Shown here piece after piece: positions 1,564 to 30,883 of a stretch of 64,000 bases of DNA. Position 1 is the first letter of the stretch, and the number at the start of each line of letters is the position of its first letter. The position numbers and the translations under genes are program-made. The DNA comes from Gammaproteobacteria bacterium. GTDB lineage: Bacteria > Pseudomonadota > Gammaproteobacteria > Pseudomonadales > Pseudohongiellaceae. The stretch is from positions 2,967 through 66,966 of the forward strand of contig CANGUU010000007.1 in assembly GCA_947457195.1 (NCBI GenBank), written 5' to 3'. A model generated the notes under the pieces. The model was given only the letters and a program-made list of their open reading frames with translations, was not told where the DNA came from and did no database searches.

Positions 1564-2952
1564 TCAGTCTTCCCGGAAGCTGCGGGCAACGGAATCGGAA
1601 AGCGGCTTCAGCAGATACTGGATGAAGGTACGCGCCCCGGTGGTGATGAACACCTCGGCCGGCATGCCGGGCACGAGCTCCTGTCCGTTCAGTTCCGTGA
1701 GGGATTCAGGCTTCAACGCCAGGCGTGCCAGGTAGAACTGGGTACCCTGCGAATCGGTGAGGATATCGGCCGAGACCGTGGTCACCGTACCGTACAGCAC
1801 CGGTACCGTGCGGCTATTCATGGCGGTCATGCGGACGGATGCCTCTTGGCCGACTGCCACGCGGTCGATGTCCATCGGTGAGATCTTCGCTTCAATGATC
1901 AGCTCGTCGCTCTCCGGCACGATCTCGGCAATGATGGTACCGGGTGGCAGCACGCTCCCCGGCGTATGCACCGTGAGGCCATTGACGATGCCGGCCTCCG
2001 GTGTGCGGACTTCCGTGCGGCTCACTACGTCGGACAGCGCAGTGATGCGCTCGCGGTATTCCTGCAGGCGGGACTGGACGTCCGCGAGCTCCTCCACCAC
2101 ATCGGACTGCAGGCGGTTTTTCAATTGCAGGATCTGCAATCGGGTTTCCCCGATCTGGATTTGCGTGGACGCGATGGTAGCGGCCAGATCAGCGGCATCG
2201 CCATTGGTCAGGGTCAGGCTGCGCTCGAGTTCGCGCAGGCGGGATTTTTCCGCGAAGCCCTCGTCGAGCAACTGGCGGAAGTCCTGCACTTCGTCGCTGT
2301 AGGACGCAGCCAGTGCCAGTTTGCTTTCGCGTACGGCCTGCAATCCCTCCACGCGCGATTCGAGCTGACCGATGCGCTGTTCGAGCACGGAGATCTCGCC
2401 CTCGTTGGTGGTTTTGTTGGCCAGGAATATGCGCTGCTGCGCAGCCATTTCGGCGGCAGCTACCGGGTCGGACAGATCGAGGCCCGCAGGTGCTTCCACC
2501 GTGGTCTTGCCATCGCGCGCGGCCAGCAAGCGGGCCTCCAGCGCAAGCTGCGCTTTCAGCATGCCGCGGAGCGTGTCGAGCTGGCTGAGCGACTGCGTAT
2601 TGTCCATTTCCAGCAAGACATCGTTGGGCTGCACCTTGTCGCCATCGCTCACATGCACCACCTTGACGATACCGCCTTCCAGGTGCTGGATGGGCTTCTT
2701 GAACGACTTGACTGTGACCTGGCCCACGGCGTGGGCTGCGCTGTCGATGGGCGCCAGCACGGCCCACAGGCCGAACACGCCGAACACCAGCCCTGCCACG
2801 AGCAAGCCGATACGCTTCGGTGCATCGATATTGCTTTCATCGCTCGATGCGCGTTCGCGTACGACCAGTACGTCTTCCAGGCGCGCCAGTGCGCCCCCTG
2901 CCGTGTTCGGCACCGGCTCCTTGCCGAACACCACGCCTGAATTGTCTGCCAC
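1564..2952 (-). CDS. HlyD-family type I secretion periplasmic adaptor (membrane fusion protein)
   Basis: 462 aa. It has a single N-terminal TM helix (IGLLVAGLVFGVFGLWAVLAPI), a lipoyl-like hairpin (GGIVKVVHVSDGDKVQPNDVLLEMD), a long coiled coil and a C-terminal beta-barrel domain. It lies between the ABC and TolC genes. Confidence 0.9.
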   Translation of the reverse strand: MADNSGVVFGKEPVPNTAGGALARLEDVLVVRERASSDESNIDAPKRIGLLVAGLVFGVFGLWAVLAPIDSAAHAVGQVTVKSFKKPIQHLEGGIVKVVHVSDGDKVQPNDVLLEMDNTQSLSQLDTLRGMLKAQLALEARLLAARDGKTTVEAPAGLDLSDPVAAAEMAAQQRIFLANKTTNEGEISVLEQRIGQLESRVEGLQAVRESKLALAASYSDEVQDFRQLLDEGFAEKSRLRELERSLTLTNGDAADLAATIASTQIQIGETRLQILQLKNRLQSDVVEELADVQSRLQEYRERITALSDVVSRTEVRTPEAGIVNGLTVHTPGSVLPPGTIIAEIVPESDELIIEAKISPMDIDRVAVGQEASVRMTAMNSRTVPVLYGTVTTVSADILTDSQGTQFYLARLALKPESLTELNGQELVPGMPAEVFITTGARTFIQYLLKPLSDSVARSFRED

Positions 2953-2997: not shown

Positions 2998-4716
2998 TCA
3001 TGCCGCCGACCCGAGTTTGGGGGCAGGTTGGGCCAGCTGGCTCAGTACCTGCTCGCGCGGGCCAAAGCCCAGCATGGCGCCATCTTTAAGCACCAGCACC
3101 TTGTCGACCGTACCGAGAATCATGGTGCGATGGCTCACGATCACCACCGTACAGCCGGCCGCCTTGATGCGCTGAATGGCCAGCACCAGTTCACGTTCGC
3201 CCTGATCGTCGAGGTTCGAGTTCGGCTCGTCCAGCACCAGCAGGCGTGGCTCGCCATAGATCGCTCGCGCCAGCCCGATGCGCTGGCGCTGCCCACCGGA
3301 CAGCACGCCGCCGCTGCCGCCGATCACCGTATCGTAGCCCTCCGGTTGGCGCAGGATCAGGTCATGCACGCCGGACATCTGCGCGGCCGCCACGATTTTT
3401 TCGGCATCGCGCTCGCCGAAGCGGCAGATGTTGTCGGCGATCGTCCCGTCGAAGAGTTCGATGTCCTGCGGCAGGTATCCGATGTAGGGACCCAGGTCCT
3501 GGCGGTTCCAGAGGGTGATGTCGGCGCCGTCCAGCCGCACTTTGCCGCTGGCCGACGGCCATACGCCGAGGATGGCGCGCGCCAGCGTGGATTTGCCGGA
3601 GGCGCTCGGGCCGATCACGCCCAGCACTTCACCGGCGGCGAGCTGGAAGTTGATGCCGCGCAGCACCGGCACTCGCGCACCCGGCGGCGTCACATAGATT
3701 TGCTCTACCGACAGGTGTCCGAGCGGGGCCGGCAGTTGTAGCCGCTCATTGGTGGCTGGTACCTGTTCGAGCAGCGCGCAGAGGCGCTCGTACTGGGCGC
3801 GGGCGACCGAGAATGATTTCCACGTGCCCACCAGCATATCGATCGGGGCCAGCGCACGACCAAGCAGCAAGGAGCCCGCCACCATCGCGCCGCCGGTCAC
3901 CTCCTGGTTGAGCGCCAGCCAGGCGCCCAGTCCCAGGATGAGCGACTGCACCACCTGTCGGAAGGTCTTCGACATCGATGTGAGGAAGCCGGCCATCTTG
4001 CTGGCCTCGGCCTGCTGGCGGAGAACTTCCTCGCTGTACTGCTGTTGGCGGCGGCGAATCGCCGAAGTCATGCCCATCGCCTCGATGACCTCGGCATTGC
4101 GCAGGCTATTGACCAAGTGAGCGTTGGCCTTCGCCATCTCGACGTTGGCATCCTTGAGGCGACCGGTGGTGCTGATGTCGGTTACGTAGGCCAGACCGGC
4201 CATCACGATGGCGGCGAAGATCGTCATCAGCCCGTAGCTGTAATGGAACATGAACATCACTGCCAGGTAGATGGGAAACCACGGCACGTCGAAAAAGGCA
4301 AAAATACCGTTGCCGGTGAGAAACTGCCGGAGACTGGTGAGGTCGTTGATGGCCTGAGCGTTGCCCTTGCCCTGTGTTGACTGCAGCGCCGTCTTGAAGG
4401 TTGCGTTGAACACGCGCTCACGCAGGGAGCGCTCGATCTTGTTGCTGGCGAACACCAGCAGATAGGAGCGCACCCACTCGAATGCACCGGTAGCCACCAG
4501 CAGGAACAGTACCAGCAGCGTGAGATACAGCAGGGTGGAGTAGCTGCCGCTGGCTAATACACGATCGTAGACCTGCATCATGTATAGGATCGGCGCAAGT
4601 TGCAGAATATTGATCGCTGCACTGAAGGCGCCGGCGTAGATGAAGTGCTGCCGGATCGCCTGCAGCGCATCCAGCAGTTCCCTCGGTGGTTTCGGATAAT
4701 TGAAGTTCTTCATCAC
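2998..4716 (-). CDS. Type I secretion system permease/ATPase (PrtD/RsaD type, no C39 peptidase domain)
   Basis: 572 aa with an N-terminal 6-TM domain (LAPILYMMQVYDRVL motif). Walker A is GPSASGKST, the ABC signature is LSGGQRQR and Walker B is LLVLDEP. The size and the lack of an N-terminal peptidase domain fit RTX/S-layer exporters. Confidence 0.9.
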   Translation of the reverse strand: MMKNFNYPKPPRELLDALQAIRQHFIYAGAFSAAINILQLAPILYMMQVYDRVLASGSYSTLLYLTLLVLFLLVATGAFEWVRSYLLVFASNKIERSLRERVFNATFKTALQSTQGKGNAQAINDLTSLRQFLTGNGIFAFFDVPWFPIYLAVMFMFHYSYGLMTIFAAIVMAGLAYVTDISTTGRLKDANVEMAKANAHLVNSLRNAEVIEAMGMTSAIRRRQQQYSEEVLRQQAEASKMAGFLTSMSKTFRQVVQSLILGLGAWLALNQEVTGGAMVAGSLLLGRALAPIDMLVGTWKSFSVARAQYERLCALLEQVPATNERLQLPAPLGHLSVEQIYVTPPGARVPVLRGINFQLAAGEVLGVIGPSASGKSTLARAILGVWPSASGKVRLDGADITLWNRQDLGPYIGYLPQDIELFDGTIADNICRFGERDAEKIVAAAQMSGVHDLILRQPEGYDTVIGGSGGVLSGGQRQRIGLARAIYGEPRLLVLDEPNSNLDDQGERELVLAIQRIKAAGCTVVIVSHRTMILGTVDKVLVLKDGAMLGFGPREQVLSQLAQPAPKLGSAA

Positions 4717-4990
4717 TGGCCTTTGTGTGCGCCGGCTGCATGGGCTGCGAGCGTAGAGCGCGTGGGGAGTGGTGTGACCGCCGATGGAACCCCAGGCGAA
4801 GTTCCCGCGGAGCTCTGTGGCGCAGAGCCCGCCATACCGCGCTCTGTTTTTGCCTTGTGGCGCGCTACCCGTCGTGCCGTGTTTATGGTGGCATTCGGGC
4901 GCCTTTCAATCGGGAGCGGTCAATTCCGGGTGGATTGTAGCCGAAGGCGGTGGTCACACCTACATCCCATTGGTCGGCACCGCGCCACGG

Positions 4991-5692
4991 TCAAAGCTCC
5001 TTGCTGCCCTCCACGTAGCTCTTCAGCAGGGCCAGCGAAGGGATCAGCAGGCGCGCGGCACCGTCGCGCTGTACCACGCCTTCCTGCTGCAAGGTCTGGA
5101 AGACGCGCGTGACCGTTTCTCGGCTGAGATTGAGCATGATGGCGATCTCCATGTGGGTGGGAGGATTGCGGATCTGCCCTTGCTGCAGTGCTGATTTTTC
5201 CTGCTCCTCCACCAGCAGCCACAGCTGCCAGCACACGCGCTGGGCGATGTTGGGCAGGCCGAGCAATGAGCGCTGCAAAGTGAGTTGCCGCACGCGGCGC
5301 GCCAGACGCTCGCCGAGAGAGGTGACCACCGGTGGGCAGGTTTCCATGGCGTCACGCAGCGCTGGCAACGGCACCCAGACCACCATCGCCGGCGCCAGCA
5401 CGATCACGAACTCCGGCTGTGGGCCGCTGTCGAACAGCGCGAGTTCGCCGCAGAAATCCCCGGGCTCTACGAAAAACAGCCCCACTTCGCGGCCGTCGAC
5501 GGTAAAATCCACGCCCTGCAGACGGCCCTCGAACAGAAAGCAGACGCGCTCTCCCCGCTCGCCGGCCTTCAGCACCACGGCGCGGCGCGCAAAACGCTCC
5601 ACGCTGCTTTGCTGGGCAAGCAGCCCCCGGCCGCTTGCAGGCAGCAGGCGGAGCAGGGGAAACGCGCTGAGCAGCTCGGGTGTGACGACCAT
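4991..5692 (-). CDS. Crp/Fnr-family transcriptional regulator (cNMP-binding-like domain plus C-terminal HTH)
   Basis: 233 aa. The beta-roll core is GDFCGELALF. The C-terminal HTH THMEIAIMLNLSRETVTRVFQTLQQEGVV has a recognition helix R-E-T-V-T-R that matches E. coli CRP RETVGR (R180/E181/R185). By manual alignment the phosphate-binding Arg-Ser of CRP appears replaced by Pro-Glu. Confidence 0.85.
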   Translation of the reverse strand: MVVTPELLSAFPLLRLLPASGRGLLAQQSSVERFARRAVVLKAGERGERVCFLFEGRLQGVDFTVDGREVGLFFVEPGDFCGELALFDSGPQPEFVIVLAPAMVVWVPLPALRDAMETCPPVVTSLGERLARRVRQLTLQRSLLGLPNIAQRVCWQLWLLVEEQEKSALQQGQIRNPPTHMEIAIMLNLSRETVTRVFQTLQQEGVVQRDGAARLLIPSLALLKSYVEGSKEL

Positions 5693-5811
5693 CAGCAGTC
5701 CAGGAAAGCCCCGACAGCCTGGTGGCGGAAAACGCCCAGGCCGGGAGCCGGAAAGACGGAGGCGAGTATAAGTGTCTGAGTTGTAACGGCAAACCGCGGA
5801 TGCGGCAGCCG

Positions 5812-5827
5812 TGTGACCTCGGTCACT
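5812..5827. promoter_or_regulatory. CRP-type box TGTGA-CCTCGG-TCACT (9/10 to TGTGA-N6-TCACA) in the divergent promoter between the Crp-family gene and the FecR/CHASE2 operon
   Basis: Read directly from the sequence. The site centre is 5819.5. A TATACT hexamer on the minus strand (5770-5765) would place the centre near -61.5 for the regulator gene. A TAACAT hexamer on the plus strand (5850-5855) would place it near -42.5 for the FecR operon. Both -10 assignments are by eye only. Confidence 0.45.
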
Positions 5828-6014
5828 TCAGCCCGGGCGCCGCCGGCAGTAACATTTGTGTTCACGAAAACCCGCAAGCGCTCGACTGCAGGAGGGCTTG
5901 ATCCGGTGAAGGCCCGACAGAATGTAGAGTAGCTGCCGCTCGGGTGGGTGGCAGACAGCAGCAGCTGCTGGAGCTGCTCAGGTGAACGTCAAACAGACAG
6001 GTGAGGTTGCTGCC

Positions 6015-7439
6015 ATGCAACGCGTGTCACGGACAATTCCCGCTTTTGCGCTCGCCGCCACTACGCTGCTGGCCGCGGCTGTTGCCAGCGCGTCCGGGGT
6101 AGCGCCAGTGCTGGCCATCGGTGAAATCACGCTCGTGCTCGGCAAGGCCGAAGTCAAGCGCGCCGGTGGCGCCGTGGTGCCCGCCACCGTGGGCCTGCCG
6201 GTGCACGTCAACGACCTGATCGAAACCAATGCGCGCGGCCACGTACACGTGCACTTCGTCGACGATGCGCTGGTGAGCGTGCGGCCGCAGAGCCGGCTGG
6301 AGATCCTGCGCTATGACTACGACCCGGCCCGCCCCGCCGAATCCGCAGTCAAGATGAACCTCATCGAAGGCGAAACCCACGCCATTTCCGGCGAGGCCGC
6401 CAAGGCCGCGCGCCAGAATTACCGCATGAACACGCCCATCGCTGCCATCGGCGTGCGCGGCACGGACTACACGGTCACCGCCTCGCGTGAGGCCGTCACC
6501 GCCATCGTCAACGAAGGGGCCATCGTGGTGGCGCCGTTTTCCAGCGGTTGCTCGGCTGACACGCTCGGGCCCTGCAACCAGGGTGCCGTGGAGCTGAACG
6601 GCTATTCGCGTGAGCTGCTGGCACTCAGTGCCGACGCCGCCGGCGTGCGCTCCACGCTGCTGCCGCTCGGGCCGGTGGAAGGCCGCGCCGCCGAATTGCA
6701 GACGGCACCCAGCCCAGAACCGCAGGCCACCGCCAAGCAGGCCGAAGGCCAGCAGCTCTACAACGACACGGTCTCCACCCGTACTGTGAACACCAAGTTG
6801 GCCAGCTCCAGCGAATCCGCCAAGGCGCCAGCCGCTCCCACGCCGCTGGCGCCCACCCCGGTGCCGGTCACGCCCGCCCCTCCGCCCGTGCCTGAATTCA
6901 CGCCGCCCGTAGCCGTGCCTGCCACCACGCTCGCCAGTCAGGGCCAGCTGGTGTGGGGCCGCTGGACCGAAAACAACCTGGCCAACGAGCGCATCTCGGT
7001 TTCGTACGATGTCGCCCGCCAAGATGGCCGCAGCGTGTCGGTGGGCAACACGGTCTACGCGCTGTTCCGCGCCAGCGGCAGCGAGACCGTCTTCAAGCCC
7101 ACGCTCGGCGTGCTGCAGTTCAGCTTGCAGAAAGCGCAGGCCCTCTACAGCACGGCCGGCCGGACCGACCTCATGGGCGTTTCCGGCGGCAAATTGCAGC
7201 TGGACTTCGAACAGGCGCTGTTTTCCACCACGTTGCAGCTCAGCCACGAGGCGCTCGGTAATTACCAGTTCGCCACCAGCGGGCGTATTTATTCCGGCGG
7301 CGTGTTCCACGCCAACAACGAGACGCAGGCCATGGCCGGCGCACTCAGTTACGACAACAAGGAAGCCGGCTACTTCTTCGAGCGCACGCTGCCCGGCGGC
7401 ACCATCTCCGGCATCACCCTGTGGAACCGCGCCCCGTGA
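6015..7439 (+). CDS. Secreted FecR-domain protein with Pro-rich linker and C-terminal beta-rich domain
   Basis: ATG 6015 is preceded by AGGTGAGG (5999-6006). The signal peptide is MQRVSRTIPAFALAATTLLAAAVASA with no lipobox Cys. The FecR-like segment is GEITLVLGKAEVKRAGG...VHVNDLIETNARGHVHVHFVDDALVSVRPQSRLEI. A Pro-rich linker (APAAPTPLAPTPVPVTPAPPPVP) is followed by a roughly 170-aa domain with an alternating-hydrophobic pattern. An alternative GTG start lies at 5982. Confidence 0.75.
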   Translation: MQRVSRTIPAFALAATTLLAAAVASASGVAPVLAIGEITLVLGKAEVKRAGGAVVPATVGLPVHVNDLIETNARGHVHVHFVDDALVSVRPQSRLEILRYDYDPARPAESAVKMNLIEGETHAISGEAAKAARQNYRMNTPIAAIGVRGTDYTVTASREAVTAIVNEGAIVVAPFSSGCSADTLGPCNQGAVELNGYSRELLALSADAAGVRSTLLPLGPVEGRAAELQTAPSPEPQATAKQAEGQQLYNDTVSTRTVNTKLASSSESAKAPAAPTPLAPTPVPVTPAPPPVPEFTPPVAVPATTLASQGQLVWGRWTENNLANERISVSYDVARQDGRSVSVGNTVYALFRASGSETVFKPTLGVLQFSLQKAQALYSTAGRTDLMGVSGGKLQLDFEQALFSTTLQLSHEALGNYQFATSGRIYSGGVFHANNETQAMAGALSYDNKEAGYFFERTLPGGTISGITLWNRAP

Positions 7440-9433
7440 AAAACAGCGCCGCCATGGCCGCCTTGCTCCGGATACCCGGCCGCCTGATCGGCCAGTGGCA
7501 GCCGTGGCAGGCGCGTGCCGGACTGCTGGCCGGTGCCGGCCTGCTCACGCTGTTGCTGCAGGCCCTGCTGCCGTCCCTGGTTTCTGGCGTCGAGGAGCAG
7601 CTCGGCAGTCTCGGATGGCGCCTCGCGCCCGATGCCCGGCAGGAAGAGCGCATCAACATCATTGCGATCGACGAGAAGAGCCTCGCCGAGGTGGGCCCGT
7701 GGCCCTGGTCGCGGCAGACCATGGCGCAGCTTGCCACCGCCCTGCAGCAGGCCGGCGTGCAGCTGCAGGCCTACGACATCGCCTTCCCCGAAGCCCGTGA
7801 GGGCGACGATGCCTTCGCCGCCGCGCTGGCCGGCACCAGCGCCGTGCTGGCGCAGGTGCCCGACCTGCTCAATCCGGGCCAGATCACCACCACCGGCCTG
7901 CTCGGGTCGCCGCTGCTCGGCGTGGCCTGCAGCAACGCCGCCAGCACCGGCAGCTACACCGGCAACACGGCCGCGCTGGCCGGCATCGCCGCCGGCCATG
8001 CCACGCCCATCGTCGACGGTGATGGCGCGGTGCGCCGCGTGCCGGCCTATATCTGTGTGAACGGGCAGCCCTATCCGGCACTGGCGTTGAGTGCCCTGCT
8101 CGCCGCCACCCGCACGGACAGCTGGCAGGCCACGCGCAGCACAGGCGCCGGGCCCTGGCAGGCGGTGCAGCAACTCACCTTCGCGGCCTACCCCGGGCTT
8201 GCCATTCCCCTCGACGCCGACGGCAATTTCCGCGTGTCGTTCCGCCAGTCCCCCGACGCCTACCGCGCAATTTCGGCCGCCGACGTGCTGGCCGGCCGCG
8301 TAGACCCCGGCGTGCTGGCCAACAGCTGGGCGCTGGTCGGCTTCACCGCCTTCGGCATGAACGATGTCGTCCCCACTCCCTTCAACGGCGCCGCCCACGG
8401 CGTGGAACTGCAGGCCCGCATCCTTGCCAGCGTGCTCGACGCCAACGTCCCCTTCACCCCGCGGGCGGCGCCCTGGCTGCTGGCGCTGCTGTGTGCCGGT
8501 TTCGCCGCCCTGCTGTGGGGGCTGGCCGCCGCGCGGGAGCGGCTCGGTAACTATGGGTTGGCGGCCGGTGCTCTGCTGCTGCCGGCGCTGGCGCTCTATG
8601 TCCACATGCAGGTGCTGGCACAGTCCGCCTGGTGGCTGGGCTGGTTTGCGCCGGCCGTGTTCGGGTTCCTGGCGGGCAGCCTGTTGCTGCTGCAGGAATA
8701 TGCCCGAGTGCGTTTCGAGCGGGCGCGGGTGTTTGGCAACCTCAGCAGCTACCTGCCAGCCGAGGTGGCCGAGGCCATTGCCTTCAGCCTTCCCGGTTCG
8801 TCGGTGAATGCCGAGCGCCGCAACGTGACGCTGCTCAGTGCCGATCTGCGCAATTTCTCGGCCTTCGGCGAAGCGCGGCCGCCCGAAGAATCGGCGGCGC
8901 TGCTGCACATGTTCTTCAGCAAAAGCACCGAGATCGTGGAGCGTTGCCACGGCCGCATCCACGAATTCAAGGGCGATTCGCTGCTGGCCGTGTGGGAAGG
9001 CAGCGACGCCAAGGCCGCCAACCACGCGGTGCAGGCCGCCCTGCTCATGCAGAGCGCCATCAGCGAGTTCCTGCCGCAGCACCCCCCTGCAGGGCTTGAG
9101 CCGCTGGCGCTCGGCATCGGCATCGAACAGGGGCCGGTGCTCATCGGCTCGCTGGGTTCGGCCCAGCGCCGCAGCCATACGCTGCTGGGCGAAACGGTCA
9201 CCATCACGCTGCGCATTCAGGAGATGACTGCCGAACTCGCCCATCCCGTGCTGATCGGCGAATGCGCTGCCCGCCAGCTGGCGGATCTGGCGCTGGTGTC
9301 GCAGGGCAGCTACCTGCTGGCCGGCCTGCGCAATCCGCATATACTCTACGCGCTTCCGTTCAGCGCCCTGGCGCAGGCAACTGCCAGGATCGAACAGCCT
9401 CCTCTCAGAGTGGTGCGCGGCGGACGCAGTTGA
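7436..9433 (+). CDS. CHASE2-domain membrane sensor fused to a class III adenylate/guanylate cyclase
   Basis: The GTG start overlaps the FecR stop (GTGA, 7436-7439). The architecture is an N-terminal TM, a roughly 300-aa periplasmic CHASE2-like domain, three TM helices (APWLLALLCAGFAALLWGLAAA...) and a cyclase domain. The cyclase domain has metal Asp motifs (LLSADLRNFS, FKGDSLLAVW) and GETVTITLRIQ. The Lys in FKGD is compatible with ATP specificity but does not prove it. The start could also be 7421 or 7454. Confidence 0.85.
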   Translation: MKNSAAMAALLRIPGRLIGQWQPWQARAGLLAGAGLLTLLLQALLPSLVSGVEEQLGSLGWRLAPDARQEERINIIAIDEKSLAEVGPWPWSRQTMAQLATALQQAGVQLQAYDIAFPEAREGDDAFAAALAGTSAVLAQVPDLLNPGQITTTGLLGSPLLGVACSNAASTGSYTGNTAALAGIAAGHATPIVDGDGAVRRVPAYICVNGQPYPALALSALLAATRTDSWQATRSTGAGPWQAVQQLTFAAYPGLAIPLDADGNFRVSFRQSPDAYRAISAADVLAGRVDPGVLANSWALVGFTAFGMNDVVPTPFNGAAHGVELQARILASVLDANVPFTPRAAPWLLALLCAGFAALLWGLAAARERLGNYGLAAGALLLPALALYVHMQVLAQSAWWLGWFAPAVFGFLAGSLLLLQEYARVRFERARVFGNLSSYLPAEVAEAIAFSLPGSSVNAERRNVTLLSADLRNFSAFGEARPPEESAALLHMFFSKSTEIVERCHGRIHEFKGDSLLAVWEGSDAKAANHAVQAALLMQSAISEFLPQHPPAGLEPLALGIGIEQGPVLIGSLGSAQRRSHTLLGETVTITLRIQEMTAELAHPVLIGECAARQLADLALVSQGSYLLAGLRNPHILYALPFSALAQATARIEQPPLRVVRGGRS

Positions 9434-9468
9434 GTTGCCCGCCACTTTCGGAGTTCCCTGGCGCTGTG

Positions 9469-10929
9469 ATGCTTGCCGCCCCTTCCAACCTGTGGGAGCA
9501 CAGGTCTGCGACGTCCTTGCCGCGCTCGGGTCCGCACGGTCACGCTCAGCCTTCCCGCTGCTCCGCTTCCCGCCCGGTCTCCCGGCCGCCCGTCTTGCTT
9601 CGCCGCTGGCGTGTTGGCGCCTTGCTCGCGCCTTTGCTGCTGGTGCTGGGGTTGCCCGCCGCGCTCGGGCAAACATGCCCGCCGCTGCAACCTTATTACC
9701 CGGCCAGCAACCCCGCCCCACCGGAGGAGTGGCAGGCGCGGCTGCCACAGCTGGAGGCCTTGCTGGAAAACTGCCTGCAAAGCGCCGAGTACTTTGCGCT
9801 GCTGGGCGCCGCCCGGCTCAACAGCGGGCAGGTGCCGGCGGCAGTGGAATCGCTGGAGCGCGCGCTGCTGCTGCAGCCCGGCCACGGTGCCGCCCAGATC
9901 GACTACGCCGAAGCGCTGTACCTCAGCGGCCAGCTGTTCCCGGCGCTGGAACTGAACGAGACAGTGCTCGGCCGCAGTGACCTGCCCCCCGCCCTGCGGC
10001 CGGTGATCGAGGCACGGCAGCAGTTCTGGCGCGGGCAGACCCGGCGCCGCCAGCTTTCGCTGGAAGCCACTGCCGGCTACGACACCAACCTCAACAACGC
10101 CCCCACGCGCGGCGACCTGACGCTTACCTTCGGCGGCACGCCGGTCACGCTCAGCGTGGACCCGCAGTTCCGCCCGGTGGAAGGCCGCTTTGGCAACCTG
10201 CGTGCCGGCGGCGTGTGGCAGTGGCTCACCCCCGACCACCAGCATGACTTTACGGCCAACCTGCGCGGCCGCTTCACCGGCAGCGGCGCCACCGCGCTCA
10301 ACCAGGCCCAGTGGCGCTACGGCTTCAGCCGGCCCGGCCGCCACACGGTGTGGACGGCCAACGTAGGCAGCAGCCACATGAGCTTTGGGGGTAACGCCCT
10401 CTACAGCGTGGGCGAAACCCTCCTTACGCTGGGCTGGAACAGCGCCGGCCGCTGCCAACCCGCCCTGAGCGGTGGCCTGCAGACCCTGCACTACCACGGC
10501 CAGCGGGTGATGGACGGTCTGGAGGCCAGCCTGACCGCCAGCCTCGGCTGCCGGTCGGCCAGCGGCCGCCAGCAGCTACGGGTAGACGCCGGCGGACTGG
10601 ATAACAGCGCCAGCAGCGCCAACCGGCCCGGCGGCGACCGCGCCGGCTGGAACCTGCGGCTGGGCTGGCAGTACCAGTCCGGCCGGCACCTGTGGAGCGC
10701 GCTCTACAGCCACGCCAGCGTAGAAGACCAGCGCGGCTACAGCCCGCTGCTGGCCAATGGAGCCACCCGCCGGTTGGGCAACCGGGTGCTCCTGCTGCGC
10801 TACCAATGGGGCTTTGCGGAGGGCGCCGCCTTGGTGCTGGGGCTGAGCCACCAGGCCCAGTCCAGCAACCTGCAACCGTTCCAGAATCGTGGCACTGCAA
10901 CCGAAGTGGGACTGCTGCTCAACTTCTAG
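9469..10929 (+). CDS. TPR-containing outer-membrane beta-barrel protein (possibly Slam/DUF560-like)
   Basis: The signal-like segment is LLRRWRVGALLAPLLLVLGLPAALG. TPR-like helices follow (SAEYFALLGAARLNSGQVPAAVESLERALLLQPGHGAAQIDYAEALY). About 300 aa of amphipathic beta strands begin at LSLEATAGYDTNLNNAP and end in the aromatic terminus GLLLNF. The start is uncertain: ATG 9469 or TTG 9595. The Slam/DUF560 assignment is my pattern recognition only. Confidence 0.55.
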   Translation: MLAAPSNLWEHRSATSLPRSGPHGHAQPSRCSASRPVSRPPVLLRRWRVGALLAPLLLVLGLPAALGQTCPPLQPYYPASNPAPPEEWQARLPQLEALLENCLQSAEYFALLGAARLNSGQVPAAVESLERALLLQPGHGAAQIDYAEALYLSGQLFPALELNETVLGRSDLPPALRPVIEARQQFWRGQTRRRQLSLEATAGYDTNLNNAPTRGDLTLTFGGTPVTLSVDPQFRPVEGRFGNLRAGGVWQWLTPDHQHDFTANLRGRFTGSGATALNQAQWRYGFSRPGRHTVWTANVGSSHMSFGGNALYSVGETLLTLGWNSAGRCQPALSGGLQTLHYHGQRVMDGLEASLTASLGCRSASGRQQLRVDAGGLDNSASSANRPGGDRAGWNLRLGWQYQSGRHLWSALYSHASVEDQRGYSPLLANGATRRLGNRVLLLRYQWGFAEGAALVLGLSHQAQSSNLQPFQNRGTATEVGLLLNF

Positions 10930-11134: not shown

Positions 11135-11150
11135 TGTGACGCGAGTCACA
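11135..11150. promoter_or_regulatory. Perfect CRP consensus box TGTGA-CGCGAG-TCACA upstream of the S-layer-like gene
   Basis: Read directly: tgtga (11135-11139), cgcgag, tcaca (11146-11150). The centre is 11142.5, 117 bp upstream of ATG 11267, in a 337-bp lower-GC intergenic region. Confidence 0.6.
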
Positions 11151-11266: not shown

Positions 11267-14200
11267 ATGGCGTCTATATCCGCTGAAGGCCGCAGTGAAC
11301 TCATTGCCCTTTACGTCACCATGTTCAACGCAGCCCCGAGCGCAGCCAACCTGTCTGCCATCGTGGGCCAGAGAGAAGGTGGCGCCAGCCTCGTGGCCGT
11401 TGCCAATACTCTGGCAGCCAGCCCCGATTTCGCCCGCCAGTATCCGGGCTTCCTGACGGCCGACGAATTTGCCAACCGTCTGGCCACCAACATGCTGGGC
11501 AGTGAGGTTTCCGCTGCCACTCGTGACTGGGCCGTGAACTACGTTCGCAGCCAGCTCACCTCCGGCCGCGCCGCCACTGCTGTGGTCACCGAGGCCGTCC
11601 AGGCCCTGCGCGGCACCACCAACACCGAATTTGCCAATGCCAAAGCACTGCTGGCCAACAAAGTGGAAGTTGCTTCCTACTACGCAATCTCGAAGGAGCA
11701 GCCAGCCGATTCCCAGGTTGTCATGATTGGTGTTACCAGTACTGCCTCGACGGTTGTCAGTGCAAAAACCGCAATCGATAGCATTGCGAGCGTAGTGGCT
11801 GGCCAGACCTTCACGCTCACTACCAGCGCCAACACGGGTGCCCTGTTTACTGGTGGTGCCGGTGACGATTCCTACAACGGCGATTTGAGCGGCGGCAACA
11901 ACACTCTGAATGCGCTGGATCGTCTCGATGGCGGCGCAGGGACGGATACGCTGAACGCTGTATTGGCGTCCGACGTTACGCCCGCCAGCATTGCCAACAT
12001 CGAAAACATCGTGGCTACTGCCTCGGGTGGCGCGCGTGAACTCAACCTGGTCAATGCACCAGGAGTCCGGTCTGTAAGCTCCACGTCCTCCTCTGGCGGC
12101 GTGATGACGGTCAGCGGCATTGCTGCTGGTGCATCGCTTGCCGTCAACTCCCAGTCCGTCGGCGCCACGTTCAACTACGCCGACACCTCGGGTACGCAAT
12201 CAATCGCCCTTGGCGTAGCCGGTGTAACAGGCGCAGCCCCTGTCACGGTAAACGGAGTAGAAACAATTGCCGTAACGGCAACGGGTTCCGCCAGCACCTA
12301 CCAGCTGTCGGCCGATGCACTGACCTCGGTGAGCTTTGCCGGTTCGGCTGCGCAAACCGTCACTCTGGCCGGTATGACCGGCACCTCTAGCTTCAACGCG
12401 GGTGCTGCTACCGGTGCTGTCAACCTGACCCTGATCAACCAGTCTATTCTGGCGTCCACCACGCGCGTGACCGTCACCGGCGGAACTGGTAACGATACGC
12501 TGACTGTCGGCGCCCATACGCAGTCCGACCTCAACGTCTCTGCCGGTGCTGGCAACGACACGGTAAGCCACAGCAGTGTTTCCACCACTGATACCCTCAG
12601 CGGCGGCGATGGAACCGATACGCTGAGCACCACAATGGCTTCCGCCAATGCGATCGATGCATCCGCCCCACTCACACGCATCATTACCGGCTTTGAGCGC
12701 ATTACGATCACTGACGCGTTCGACGGTACCCTTAGCCTATCCAACATCGACACTGGGCTTGTCCAGGTCAATCTGGCAGACGGTGCATCCGGCGCTGGTG
12801 CGTTGATGACTGGCGGTGACGCCATCACCGGCCCTGCGGGCACGCTGACAGTGAACGTTGGTGGCTCCTCTGCAGGTAACGCCACGACCATGGGCGGCGC
12901 ACTTACCGTGACGGACACCGGTACAGCGACGACGGACTCGGTAATCATCAACAATACGGCTGTCAACACCACGACTGCCCTTGGCATCAACGTGTTTAAC
13001 GCCCAAAACATCACGTCCACCGGCTATGAGAATGTCACCATTGGCGTTGGTAGCTCGGGTACGACTGCACCGGCGTCTACGATTGGTACACTCACCATTA
13101 CGCCGGACGATTTGACGGCAGCCATATCGCTCACACTGACCGGTGGAAACGATGTGACCATCTCAAGCGTGACATCGACGGGAACTGGTCGCCTGACCAT
13201 TGACGCCTCTGCCGTCAATGCCGGAACCGACAGCCCATACGTTCAGATCGACGCAGTTACCCTCGGAACAGGTGGCACTGCCAGCATCATTGGTTCTGCT
13301 GGTAACGACAGCATCACCAGCGGAACTGTTGCACAGACGATCTCCGGCGGTGCTGGTAACGATACCATCACCGGTGGCACAGCCGCCGACAACATCAGCG
13401 GCGATGCTGGCAACGACACCATCACTGATGGCGCGGGTGGCAATGACACTATCGCTGGTGGTGATGGTAACGACACGATCACCGTGACGGGTACCTCTAC
13501 CGTAAGCGTAGATGGTGGTGCCGGTAACGACACCATTAACATCGGTAGCGTATTGTCGGCGCTTGACACCGTAAGCGGGGGTGATGGTACCGATACTCTC
13601 CGTTACTCCAGTGCCGTTACCGCAGACGTTGCTGTAGGGGTGGCAGGCTTCGAAACGCTGCGCGCCGACGCTGCGCTAACGCAGGATATGGTGCAGTTCG
13701 TAAATAATGCTGGCTTTACCCGCTTGATCAACCAGGTTGCTGGTGCCGTAACGTTCAACAACGTCGGCAGCGCCGTGACCTCGTTCACCGCGGGCGTTGC
13801 GGGCTCAACGACTACTATTGATCGCCTGCTGGATACGACATCCAACAGCCTCTCGGTATCACTGACCACTGCAACGACGACGACTGCACTCACTGCAAGT
13901 GATGAAGAAACTATCACGGTGAGTTCCAGCTTGACTGGTGCAGTCACCCTGACCACACTGACGGCGGACGACTTGACCACGCTGAATATTGGCGGTCTTG
14001 GCGCCGTTACCATCACCAACATCGCCAATGCAGCCAACTTGGCTGCAATCAATATCACGACCTCGGCGGCGGTATCGGTGAATGGAAACCAGTCCACGGT
14101 TAATATGACGGCGACCGGTACATCAGCATTCGCCAACACCATTACCGGTGGTTCTGGCAATGACGTGATCACGGGTGGTTCTGCAGCAGATAGCCTCACG

Positions 14201-14869
14201 GGCGGCGGCGGCGCCGATACCGTCTCCGGTGGTAACGGCGACGATATCTTGCTGGGTGGCAGCGGTGCCGACAGCATCACGGGCGGTGAAGGCTCCGATA
14301 GCGTTACTGGTGGCACTGGCAACGACACCGTGGTTCTTACCGAGAACTCCGCTGTAGCGGACACGGTGGTTCTGTCCACAGCGGCTACCAATGGTGTTGA
14401 TACCATCGTCGGTTTTGCGGCGGGTGCAGGGGCAGACATCATCCAGTTCGTCAATGCCGACACCACGCAGGCCGATGCTGCAGGCGCAGGCGCATTCCAA
14501 GACATTGCTGCAGTCACCTTGGTGAACGCTGCCGCCTACGATCTGGCCGCAGTCATCAACACTGCTACAATTTCCGTGGTGGAACTGCGAGGCACAACCG
14601 CAGCCAACGGCGATCTGGGTGCGGCGACCGATGGTTCAGAATTGCTGAAGTTACTCGGCACCGCCGACTCGGCAGCGACCGGCATCACCGTTGACAACAA
14701 CGGTGATCAGCTCTTCCTGGTAGCGTACGACAACGGCAATGCCTACCTGTTCCATGCAAACTCCGGTGCTGACACTACCGTCTCAGCCTCTGAGATCCGG
14801 TTGGTGGGTATCCTCACGGGTATCACGGTTGGTGCAATTGCTGACGGCGACATCGTAAGCTTGGCCTAA
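11267..14869 (+). CDS. RTX-repeat, T1SS-secreted S-layer-like surface protein (RsaA-type architecture)
   Basis: 1200 aa, rich in Thr/Ala/Gly/Ser/Val, and I saw no Cys. The N-terminal helical domain of about 150 aa is not repeat-like. Long beta-strand repeats follow. Two blocks of GGxGxD nonapeptides are present (GGAGNDTITGGTAADNISGDAGNDTITDGAGGNDTIAGGDGNDTI and GGSGNDVITGGSAADSLTGGGGADTVSGGNGDDILLGGSGADSITGGEGSDSVTGGTGNDTV). There is no N-terminal signal peptide. The C-terminus ...LFLVAYDNGNAYLFHANSGADTTVSASEIRLVGILTGITVGAIADGDIVSLA has the style of uncleaved T1SS signals. Confidence 0.8.
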   Translation: MASISAEGRSELIALYVTMFNAAPSAANLSAIVGQREGGASLVAVANTLAASPDFARQYPGFLTADEFANRLATNMLGSEVSAATRDWAVNYVRSQLTSGRAATAVVTEAVQALRGTTNTEFANAKALLANKVEVASYYAISKEQPADSQVVMIGVTSTASTVVSAKTAIDSIASVVAGQTFTLTTSANTGALFTGGAGDDSYNGDLSGGNNTLNALDRLDGGAGTDTLNAVLASDVTPASIANIENIVATASGGARELNLVNAPGVRSVSSTSSSGGVMTVSGIAAGASLAVNSQSVGATFNYADTSGTQSIALGVAGVTGAAPVTVNGVETIAVTATGSASTYQLSADALTSVSFAGSAAQTVTLAGMTGTSSFNAGAATGAVNLTLINQSILASTTRVTVTGGTGNDTLTVGAHTQSDLNVSAGAGNDTVSHSSVSTTDTLSGGDGTDTLSTTMASANAIDASAPLTRIITGFERITITDAFDGTLSLSNIDTGLVQVNLADGASGAGALMTGGDAITGPAGTLTVNVGGSSAGNATTMGGALTVTDTGTATTDSVIINNTAVNTTTALGINVFNAQNITSTGYENVTIGVGSSGTTAPASTIGTLTITPDDLTAAISLTLTGGNDVTISSVTSTGTGRLTIDASAVNAGTDSPYVQIDAVTLGTGGTASIIGSAGNDSITSGTVAQTISGGAGNDTITGGTAADNISGDAGNDTITDGAGGNDTIAGGDGNDTITVTGTSTVSVDGGAGNDTINIGSVLSALDTVSGGDGTDTLRYSSAVTADVAVGVAGFETLRADAALTQDMVQFVNNAGFTRLINQVAGAVTFNNVGSAVTSFTAGVAGSTTTIDRLLDTTSNSLSVSLTTATTTTALTASDEETITVSSSLTGAVTLTTLTADDLTTLNIGGLGAVTITNIANAANLAAINITTSAAVSVNGNQSTVNMTATGTSAFANTITGGSGNDVITGGSAADSLTGGGGADTVSGGNGDDILLGGSGADSITGGEGSDSVTGGTGNDTVVLTENSAVADTVVLSTAATNGVDTIVGFAAGAGADIIQFVNADTTQADAAGAGAFQDIAAVTLVNAAAYDLAAVINTATISVVELRGTTAANGDLGAATDGSELLKLLGTADSAATGITVDNNGDQLFLVAYDNGNAYLFHANSGADTTVSASEIRLVGILTGITVGAIADGDIVSLA
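13340..13602 (+). repeat. RTX Ca-binding nonapeptide repeat block 1 (coding repeat)
   Basis: Tandem GGxGNDTI units are read in frame from Ile692 onward, with further GGAGNDTINIG and GGDGTDTL units up to about 13602. Confidence 0.8.
14141..14335 (+). repeat. RTX Ca-binding nonapeptide repeat block 2 (coding repeat)
   Basis: Seven consecutive GGxGxDx(L/I/V)x units are read in frame, from ITGGSGNDV to GGTGNDTVV. Confidence 0.85.
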
Positions 14870-29350: not shown

Positions 29351-30883
29351 GTGGCTCTCGCTCTGGTCTACTCGCGCGCCACGCTCGGCATCGACGCACC
29401 CTTGGTCACGGTTGAAGTCCATCTCAGCGGCGGCTTGCCGAACTTCACCATCGTGGGGCTGCCCGAGGCCGGCGTGCGGGAAAGCCGCGAGCGGGTCCGC
29501 AGCGCCATCCTCAACGCCCAGCTGGATTTTCCGCAGCAGCGCATCACCATCAACCTGGCGCCGGCCGACCTGCCGAAGACCGGCGGGCGCTTCGACCTCG
29601 CCATTGCCGTGGGCATTCTGGCGGCGTCACGGCAGCTCGGCGGGGAGCGCCTGGCACGACTGGTGTTCGTCGGCGAGCTGGCGCTCGGTGGCGAAGTGCG
29701 CGGCGTGAGCGGACTGCTGCCGGGCCTGCTCGCCAACCGGCGCGAAGGGTTTGCCAGCGTGGTGCCGGCCGACAACGCTGAGGAAGCCGGGTTGCTGGCA
29801 GGCAGCGATGTGCATCTGTGCCGGCACCTGCTGGAGGTGCTGGCTTTTCTGCAGGGCTCGGCGGCGCTGCCGCGGCCGGGGGTGACTGCGCCGCAGCCAG
29901 CCGCTGCCGGGCCCGATCTCGACGACGTGGTGGGGCAGGAGGTGGCCAAGCGGGCGCTGCTGGTGGCGGCGGCAGGCGGCCACAACCTGCTGCTCCGCGG
30001 GCCACCAGGGACCGGCAAGACCATGCTGGCGAGCCGTCTGCCTTCGCTGCTGCCCCCGCTGGCGGCCGAGCAGGCGCTGGAGGTGGCGGCCATCCATTCG
30101 CTGGCGCCACACAAGGGCAGGCGCGAGCAGTGGTGGCAGGCGCCCTTTCGTGCCCCGCACCACACCAGCACGGCCGTGGCCCTAGCCGGTGGCGGCAGCA
30201 CCTTGCAGCCCGGCGAACTCAGTCTGGCGCACCGCGGTGTGCTGTTTCTGGACGAGTTGCCGGAGTTCAGCCCGCGGGCGCTGGAGGTGCTGCGCGAGCC
30301 GCTGGAAACCGGCTGCATCCAGATTGCGCGGGCCCGCTACCAGGTGCGCTTGCCGGCGCGCCTGCTGTTGGTGGCCGCCATGAATCTCTGTCCCTGCGGG
30401 CGGCTTGGCGGTGCCGCCGACAATCGCTGTACCTGTGCACCGGACCGCGTGCGGCAGTATCAGCAGCGGGTATCCGGGCCCTTGCTCGATCGCCTGGATC
30501 TGCATGTGAACGTACCGCCGATGGCCGAGGCCGACCGCCAGCTGCTGCTGCAGTCATCGCGTGGCGGTGGTCCCGGCAGCACCGCGCTGCGGGCGCAGGT
30601 AGTGGCCTGTCGGGCGCGGCAGCTGGCGCGCGCCGGCCGGCTGAATGCGGAGTTGGCGCCGGCCGACCTGCAGGCGCACTGTGAACTGCCGGCCGCCGAG
30701 CAGCGTCTGCTTGCCACCGCGATGCAGCGACTGCAGCTCAGCACCCGCGCCGTGCTGCGGGTGCTGCGCATCGCCCGCACCATCGCCGATCTGGCGCTGG
30801 CCGACGAGATAAGCGCGGGTCATCTGCTGGAAGCGGTCAACTACCGCCGTGGCGACACCGCCGCCGTGGCGCCGCCGGCCTGA
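29351..30883 (+). CDS. comM: YifB/ComM-family Mg-chelatase-like AAA+ ATPase
   Basis: GTG 29351 follows GGGAGG. The N-terminus is ALALVYSRATLGIDAPLVTVEVHLSGGLPNFTIVGLPE. Walker A is GPPGTGKT and Walker B is VLFLDELPEF. Confidence 0.9.
   Translation: MALALVYSRATLGIDAPLVTVEVHLSGGLPNFTIVGLPEAGVRESRERVRSAILNAQLDFPQQRITINLAPADLPKTGGRFDLAIAVGILAASRQLGGERLARLVFVGELALGGEVRGVSGLLPGLLANRREGFASVVPADNAEEAGLLAGSDVHLCRHLLEVLAFLQGSAALPRPGVTAPQPAAAGPDLDDVVGQEVAKRALLVAAAGGHNLLLRGPPGTGKTMLASRLPSLLPPLAAEQALEVAAIHSLAPHKGRREQWWQAPFRAPHHTSTAVALAGGGSTLQPGELSLAHRGVLFLDELPEFSPRALEVLREPLETGCIQIARARYQVRLPARLLLVAAMNLCPCGRLGGAADNRCTCAPDRVRQYQQRVSGPLLDRLDLHVNVPPMAEADRQLLLQSSRGGGPGSTALRAQVVACRARQLARAGRLNAELAPADLQAHCELPAAEQRLLATAMQRLQLSTRAVLRVLRIARTIADLALADEISAGHLLEAVNYRRGDTAAVAPPA

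Follow-up and report, generated by a model that had tools for sequence, protein, structure and literature searches.

The window, i.e. the whole stretch of 64,000 nucleotides analysed here, corresponds to contig C7 of a gammaproteobacterial genome assembly of the family Pseudohongiellaceae (2.8 Mb, 64% GC, 139 contigs). It contains two sets of genes that diverge from a common spacer, with the gene of a Crp/Fnr-family regulator and two secretion genes on the minus strand, and a FecR–cyclase–TPR operon followed by an RTX gene on the plus strand. The spacer itself carries a CRP-type box (box 2) between two predicted promoters, whereas its sister site (box 1) lies upstream of the RTX gene:

1564-2952, minus strand: HlyD-type fusion protein (Pfam)
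2998-4716, minus strand: ABC exporter (Pfam)
4991-5692, minus strand: Crp/Fnr-family regulator of 233 aa (Pfam cNMP_binding and HTH_Crp_2)
5758, minus strand: predicted start of the regulator gene, placed from the -10 position only
5765-5770, minus strand: predicted -10 element TATACT of the regulator-gene promoter (promoter scan; TATAAT in most relatives)
5787-5792, minus strand: predicted -35 element TTGCCG, spaced 16 nt from the -10 (relatives have TTGCTA or TTGCCA)
5812-5827, no strand assigned: box 2, TGTGACCTCGGTCACT, predicted operator of the local Crp-family regulator (motif match and conservation)
5850-5855, plus strand: predicted -10 element TAACAT of the sensor-operon promoter, 22 nt past the box and without a -35
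5862, plus strand: predicted start of the FecR–cyclase–TPR operon, placed from the -10 position only
6015-7439, plus strand: secreted protein with a FecR domain, encoded first in the divergent operon (Pfam FecR; signal peptide in the translation)
7421-9433, plus strand: CHASE2 class III nucleotide cyclase (Pfam CHASE2 and Guanylate_cyc)
9262-10929, plus strand: TPR-containing protein, encoded last in the sensor operon (weak TPR Pfam matches; synteny)
11135-11150, no strand assigned: box 1, the perfect site TGTGACGCGAGTCACA upstream of the RTX gene, in the same predicted regulon
11267-14869, plus strand: RTX repeat protein, a likely type I secretion substrate (Pfam HemolysinCabind)

The gene order HlyD–ABC–regulator and, divergently, FecR–cyclase–TPR–box–RTX is kept in close relatives on all contigs that are long enough. 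Among the related loci of the wider set described below, every one of the 77 with upstream DNA has a FecR gene divergent to the regulator gene, and so does the window; the cyclase gene follows FecR in all 68 where the DNA extends so far, and the ABC gene comes next after the regulator gene in 74 out of 80. The possibility of a third box in front of the ABC gene was rejected, as only 4 of these 74 gaps behind the regulator gene contain a match of 8/10 or better and no box is conserved there, and a scan of the gap in the window found neither a promoter nor a minus-strand terminator. The ABC and HlyD genes may thus be co-transcribed with the regulator gene and fed by its promoter, in which case any control of this promoter may also reach the secretion genes. 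Past the regulator stop codon (4934-4958, minus strand) there is a lone TGTGA half-site with a TACAAT hexamer 14 nt further on and no second half-site; no such site is conserved in the relatives.

The sequence and coordinates given for box 2 in the initial annotation were recovered exactly. The site is a 9/10 match to TGTGA-N6-TCACA with the inner palindrome GTGACC/GGTCAC, also as originally described, and its two inverted 5-bp half-sites, placed 6 bp apart, make it a DNA site of the CRP/CAP type. The length first reported for the regulator-FecR spacer holds, at 289 bp, when translation of FecR is taken to begin at the GTG at 5982, but becomes 322 bp with the ATG at 6015, the likelier start, which has GGTGAGG as its ribosome-binding site and a signal peptide after it. 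Taken by itself, the window does not set the match apart from chance: two sites with at most one mismatch were found in the 64 kb against 0.99 expected, and two or more appeared in 25 of 100 shuffled sequences. The whole genome holds only 14 sites at this level of mismatch, fewer than its base composition predicts, and most of them fall within coding sequence. An RNA element in the spacer was rejected, as the only Rfam match, at 20.5 bits, stays below the gathering score of 44. The predicted 153-nt FecR leader also contains a 13-nt inverted repeat with 85% complementarity (AGTAGCTGCCGCT / AGCAGCAGCTGCT; 5928-5969).

The case for box 2 is a comparative one. A close set of regulator orthologues was obtained from 20 of 40 relatives searched (59-93% identity; 19 from the same genus and one from the same family), and among the 19 with upstream DNA the box was found as a 9/10 match in 18 and as an 8/10 match in one. 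For a wider set, one genome per species was scanned, which gave 246 relatives, and 80 loci (L049-L128) were kept, from metagenome-assembled genomes classified as Pseudohongiellaceae, Pseudohongiella, OM182, or unclassified Gammaproteobacteria or Pseudomonadales. The initial annotation had made the site depend on its presence in orthologous loci, and a 9/10 box was found in all 77 wider-set loci with upstream DNA, or 78 out of 78 when the window is counted, compared with 1.3% of shuffled versions of the same spacers. In every one of the 78 loci it takes the form TGTGA-N6-TCAC[T/C/G] and lies between the regulator gene and the divergent FecR gene. These loci are related and their counts are not independent, so that the argument lies in the fixed half-sites as opposed to their diverged surroundings. 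In a non-redundant set of 62 loci (no more than 80% identical across 136 nt around the box), no variation occurs in TGTGA (positions 1-5) or in TCAC (positions 12-15), whose columns reach 2 bits, only C or T stands at position 6 and only A or G at position 11, and the immediate flanks are a purine on the left and a pyrimidine on the right, whereas the central bases drift. Fixed half-sites around a drifting centre are the pattern expected of a protein-binding site, and the variable N6 argues against a conserved RNA hairpin. Given the contrast between real and shuffled spacers, box 2 is confirmed, on comparative grounds, as a genuine and strictly conserved operator of the CRP type, at which docking by the regulator is predicted.

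Box 1 is perfect in 13 of 13 loci and is followed 21-23 nt downstream by TA(G/A)TAT, the same geometry as that of box 2. Five sites in the genome have a perfect TGTGA-N6-TCAC core, two of which are coding, one is intergenic without promoter geometry, and the remaining two are boxes 1 and 2; these are also the only two, genome-wide, that combine the perfect core with a TAnnnT hexamer at 20-22 nt. A large genome-wide regulon was therefore rejected, as most of the 14 sites are coding and only two unite core and class II geometry, and the regulon looks local, with two sites. As for the other matches, the site on contig C3 (AGTGACGGCTGTCACA; 29505-29520), of the TGTGA-N6-TCACT type on the other strand, is placed between two plus-strand genes whose translations resemble VacJ/MlaA and MlaC homologues, with a TATAAT 32 nt downstream, which is neither class I nor class II spacing, and probably arose by chance. 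On contigs C18 (33820) and C1 (25827), sites with one core mismatch are followed by TAnnnT at 20-21 nt (TGTGGGATTATTCACC and CGTGAAACTGGTCACG).

The protein encoded beside the box belongs to the Crp/Fnr superfamily by both of its Pfam domains, each above the cut-off (PF00027, 48.9 bits; PF13545, 51.1 bits), and its PDB matches are GlxR, Mtb CRP and CAP. Its recognition helix, SRETVTR, compared with RETVGR in E. coli CRP, is invariant in all orthologues and, as aligned with E. coli CRP and 19 orthologues, retains the equivalents of the CRP residues R180, E181 and R185, which read TGTGA. It thus has the Arg-Glu-x-x-x-Arg pattern of proteins that bind sites of the CRP/CAP type. Against the NCBIfam CRP equivalog NF008732, the regulator scores 70.2 bits, below the cut-off of 266, and is no orthologue of CRP or Vfr. 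The only other full Crp-type helix-turn-helix protein of the genome (contig C33:2166-2972) is, by its E--SR helix and the cluster of Cys residues near its N terminus, a classic FNR, and helices of the FNR type read TTGAT-N4-ATCAA. A housekeeping CRP/Vfr orthologue had been put forward as a second possible binder and is ruled out, since none was found in the genome. The local regulator, with the only CRP-type reading helix found in the genome, thus appears to be the sole candidate for binding the box.

On the side of the sensor operon, the plus-strand TAACAT was found at 5850-5855, as proposed. With the start taken 7 nt past this -10, the centre of the box (5819.5) falls at -42.5, the spacing originally calculated. 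A sigma-70 scan of 5500-6200 gave neither a -35 match nor a full promoter on the plus strand. Across the family, a TAnnnT hexamer begins 21 nt past the box in most loci, and 22 nt past it in the window and its closest relative, so that the predicted box centre is at -41.5 in most loci and at -42.5 in the window. The T, A and final T of this hexamer hold 1.6-1.7 bits and are the sole other columns of the spacer above 1.5 bits. A site near -41.5 over an absent or poor -35 element is characteristic of class II activator-dependent promoters, and Crp/Fnr proteins bound at -41.5 usually activate. The near-class-II placement put forward for the sensor operon therefore has strong backing from a fixed distance of 21-22 nt across the family and from the lack of a -35 element, and a class II role of the box for the FecR–CHASE2 cyclase–TPR operon is well supported by these comparisons, being the best-supported part of the first reading. 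What counts against it is that the spacing in the window, 22 nt (-42.5), departs from the canonical 21.

The side of the regulator gene gives a more mixed picture. The minus-strand TATACT is present at 5770-5765, and the box centre lies at -61.5 when the start is taken 7 nt past this -10, both in agreement with the first description. Together with TTGCCG, this hexamer forms the only sigma-70-like promoter detected by the scan of 5500-6200, and most relatives show a minus-strand TATAAT with TTGC(T/C)A at the same 16-nt spacing. Class I sites are found at -61.5, -72.5, -82.5 and so on, all on the same helical face, and positions from -74.5 to -77.5 fall off this face, as known from E. coli. The proposed class I reading fits 61 of the 78 loci, in which the box centre lies at -60.5 to -63.5 from the predicted regulator start, but not another 12, mainly of one clade, in which it is shifted by 12-15 bp off the helical face, to between -74.5 and -77.5. 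The class II spacing on the FecR side is unchanged in the shifted clade. The clade loci with 12-15 additional bases on the regulator-promoter side of the box are L091, L097, L098, L102, L103, L109, L110 and L112, and additional bases at this place are also seen in L099, L100 and L113. In general, the linker of 20 nt that separates the box from the regulator promoter is constant in length but not in sequence, and both untranslated regions vary freely in length. The regulator promoter is near-consensus and, judging from its elements, may not need activation. Because of this and of the 12 loci that are off face, autoregulation is only plausible, with roughly even odds.

Taken together, these data suggest a mechanism in which box 2 would be the operator of the Crp-family regulator encoded beside it. 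Bound as a dimer some 41.5-42.5 bp ahead of the FecR–CHASE2 cyclase–TPR start, the regulator would stand in for the absent -35 element and recruit the RNA polymerase, as in class II activation, and the RTX gene, 5.3 kb away, would be controlled through the same arrangement around its perfect box. The dimer on box 2 would also sit about 61.5 bp upstream of the near-consensus promoter of the regulator, which probably also supplies the type I secretion genes, and to which it may add a modest class I boost in most lineages. We infer from the sequences that the regulator binds the box and acts there as an activator, and likewise the start sites and any cyclic-nucleotide dependence; a point against this explanation is that the activating surfaces of the regulator are not readable from its sequence. 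As a whole, the reading in which the regulator acts at box 2, with a class II role for the sensor operon and a possible class I role for its own gene, seems the best explanation, with a probability of about 0.75.

Several other readings have to be weighed against this one. A match like that of box 2 in a single window is within chance, which would leave room for a fortuitous palindrome, or for a site bound by FNR or by an unrelated factor. However, the conservation of the box in 78 out of 78 loci with invariant half-sites, its constant company with the regulator gene, and the FNR-type helix of the only other Crp/Fnr protein found make this reading very improbable. The regulator could also bind box 2 and repress the sensor operon, since a protein centred at -41.5 would overlap the -35 region. 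Such repression is improbable too, although less so, because the plus-strand promoter has no -35 element to occlude and its weak TAnnnT -10 is the signature of activator dependence, because the RTX gene presents the same geometry, and because activation is the rule for Crp/Fnr proteins at this position. A far stronger contender, though still on the less probable side, is that box 2 serves the sensor operon only, the regulator and secretion genes being constitutive and without autoregulation, and the -61.5 spacing a by-product of a compact spacer. The regulator promoter of most relatives, with its TATAAT and a -35 matching in four to five of six positions, is in keeping with such a constitutive role, as are the 12 loci that preserve the box and its class II spacing with the regulator promoter 12-15 bp out of phase, and the -10 columns, whose register is kept much better on the right-hand side than on the left. 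On the other hand, a mere by-product would hardly explain why 61 of 78 loci hold the box at -60.5 to -63.5 despite a diverging linker and freely varying untranslated regions, and autoregulation by Crp-family proteins from such sites is described for R. centenum and M. tuberculosis (PMC4681086, PMC5499769).

A further alternative concerns the feedback through the cyclase. The best PDB match of this enzyme is 2w01, which we take to be the Synechocystis guanylyl cyclase Cya2, and its motifs HEFKGD and GETVTITLR keep both metal-binding Asp residues and the catalytic Arg. It has a Glu at the ATP-specifying Lys position (in HEFKGD), as in 2w01 and unlike its engineered variant 6fht, which has Lys, and a Thr in place of the catalytic Asn (in GETVTITLR). 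The residues required of a class III adenylate cyclase, namely two metal-binding Asp, a Lys/Asp or Lys/Thr pair that specifies the substrate, and a catalytic Asn and Arg, are thus incomplete, although the Pfam domain itself is present. The conservation of the motif residues in 12 orthologues points to a cyclase that is under selection, and its tight family-wide linkage with the regulator argues that both work together. When the regulator is aligned to E. coli CRP and GlxR, Glu72 and the beta-roll are conserved. Among the signature residues of cAMP binding (Arg82-Ser83 and Thr127-Ser128; PMC10187061), however, the Arg82-Ser83 pair of the phosphate contact is replaced by Pro-Glu (or Gln-Pro, depending on gap placement) and the Thr127-Ser128 pair of the base contact by Leu-Thr, in both cases in every orthologue. 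As the regulator lacks the cAMP-binding Arg-Ser, a cyclic-nucleotide feedback through the cyclase is unproven, and the signatures argue against canonical binding. A feed-forward loop like that of CgrA would require that the product of the activated cyclase stimulate the regulator in its binding to DNA. The circuit may therefore include no cyclic-nucleotide loop, with a regulator that is ligand-independent or senses something else, and a cyclase that is an output and not an input, a reading that stays somewhat short of an even bet and is favoured by the changed phosphate and base contacts, by the CRP equivalog score of 70 against 266 bits, by the precedent of Cmr, a Crp-family protein that works without cAMP (PMC5499769), and by the presence on contig C91 of a canonical stand-alone cNMP-binding protein beside another cyclase. 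Against it stand the linkage between regulator and cyclase, which is without exception across the family, the conserved Glu72 and beta-roll, and the analogous gene sets of R. centenum and S. meliloti, which are cyclic-nucleotide circuits (PMC4681086, PMC5498481). The pair on contig C91 (5239-5760 and 6050-6631) comprises a second class III cyclase and a small cNMP-binding protein with a canonical Arg-Ser-Ala phosphate cassette, a possible alternative cyclic-nucleotide receptor in this genome.

Another aspect of box 2 is its last base. Position 16 of the box (5827 in the window) is T in 41, C in 20 and G in 17 of the 78 loci, and A in none, whereas position 1, its symmetry partner, is always T, and position 16 of the RTX box is A in 13 of 13. 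A quick tree built from the regulator proteins requires 12 or more changes of state at position 16, and A is the outcome of none; were targets random, the probability of missing this base throughout would be about (2/3)^12 = 0.008, a rough figure that ignores mutation bias and tree uncertainty. Box 2 hence seems to be held one base short of a perfect palindrome. Purely as a hypothesis, this could make it a feedback site of lower affinity that fires later than the RTX promoter, or could avoid a loop that locks itself on. The broader proposal that the box is deliberately imperfect, thereby setting up a two-threshold circuit, and that regulator and cyclase signal through something other than cAMP, is an unlikely one.

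The concept of a single site shared by divergent promoters is already known. Eleven divergent promoter pairs of E. coli share one CRP site (PMC3105977), and a model study indicates, as quoted in that report from El-Robh and Busby 2002, that one CRP dimer can activate both sides. The present case resembles E. coli CRP in its single 16-bp site, one dimer and divergent promoters, with the same half-site sequence, but the local protein is no CRP orthologue, its regulon is apparently local with two sites, and any dependence on cAMP is hypothetical. In M. tuberculosis, Cmr regulates both cmr and rv1676 from a single site between them, without cAMP (PMC5499769). Here too a gene for a Crp/Fnr-family protein and a divergent gene surround a single site, although Cmr differs in its motif, in its redox sensing and in the partial repression of its own gene.

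In R. centenum, the spacer ahead of the gcyB-gcyC-cgrA cluster separates divergent genes and contains a perfect TGTGA-N6-TCACA that is bound by CgrA (PMC4681086). As a feed-forward loop, CgrA drives its own expression along with that of the cyclase-associated genes, and the divergent RC1_3784 is also CgrA-dependent (PMC4681086). The RC1_3784 / RC1_3785-gcyB-gcyC-cgrA region and the present locus share a Crp-family regulator, a box of the TGTGA-N6-TCACA type in a divergent spacer and a cyclase-associated operon. The CgrA box is perfect and its gene is inside the activated operon, whereas here the box is 9/10 and the regulator lies on the opposite strand with a strong promoter of its own; likewise, CgrA keeps the Arg-Thr phosphate contact and binds cGMP, whereas the phosphate-binding residues are missing in the present regulator. 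In the case of S. meliloti, Clr adjoins a CHASE2 cyclase and has boxes before a FecR-domain gene and a TPR gene (PMC5498481), so that Clr with CyaD1 (CHASE2), SMc02177 (FecR) and SMb20495 (TPR) displays the same cast of domains (PMC5498481). The Clr box is, however, TGTT-N8-AACA (relaxed form HGTYHCNNNNGRWACW) instead of TGTGA-N6-TCACA, and Clr is a global regulator fed by many cyclases, with genes that are partly dispersed and without the type I secretion and RTX genes of the present locus. A literature search found no paper on this locus in the Pseudohongiellaceae. What is new here is box 2 itself, its geometry on both sides, the lack of a CRP orthologue and the rule at base 16, and the locus appears to combine known themes with a local two-site regulon tied to type I secretion.

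In any case, these results provide a wiring diagram for a conserved eight-gene circuit of widespread, uncultured aquatic Gammaproteobacteria, whose members include a sensor, a cyclase, a regulator, a secretion system and a secreted RTX protein. One and the same regulator seems to act through two sites of unequal quality, with the feedback arm running through box 2, and two features are unusual, namely the kept imperfection of this box and the missing nucleotide pocket of the regulator. If, as in the unlikely two-threshold reading, selection avoids the perfect palindrome, the secreted RTX protein would respond first, and more regulator activity would be needed to set off the loop that amplifies the sensor and the regulator. 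Finally, this lineage of the Crp family seems to keep the DNA code of CRP without its nucleotide pocket, and so bears on how regulators may change their ligand without a change of DNA target.
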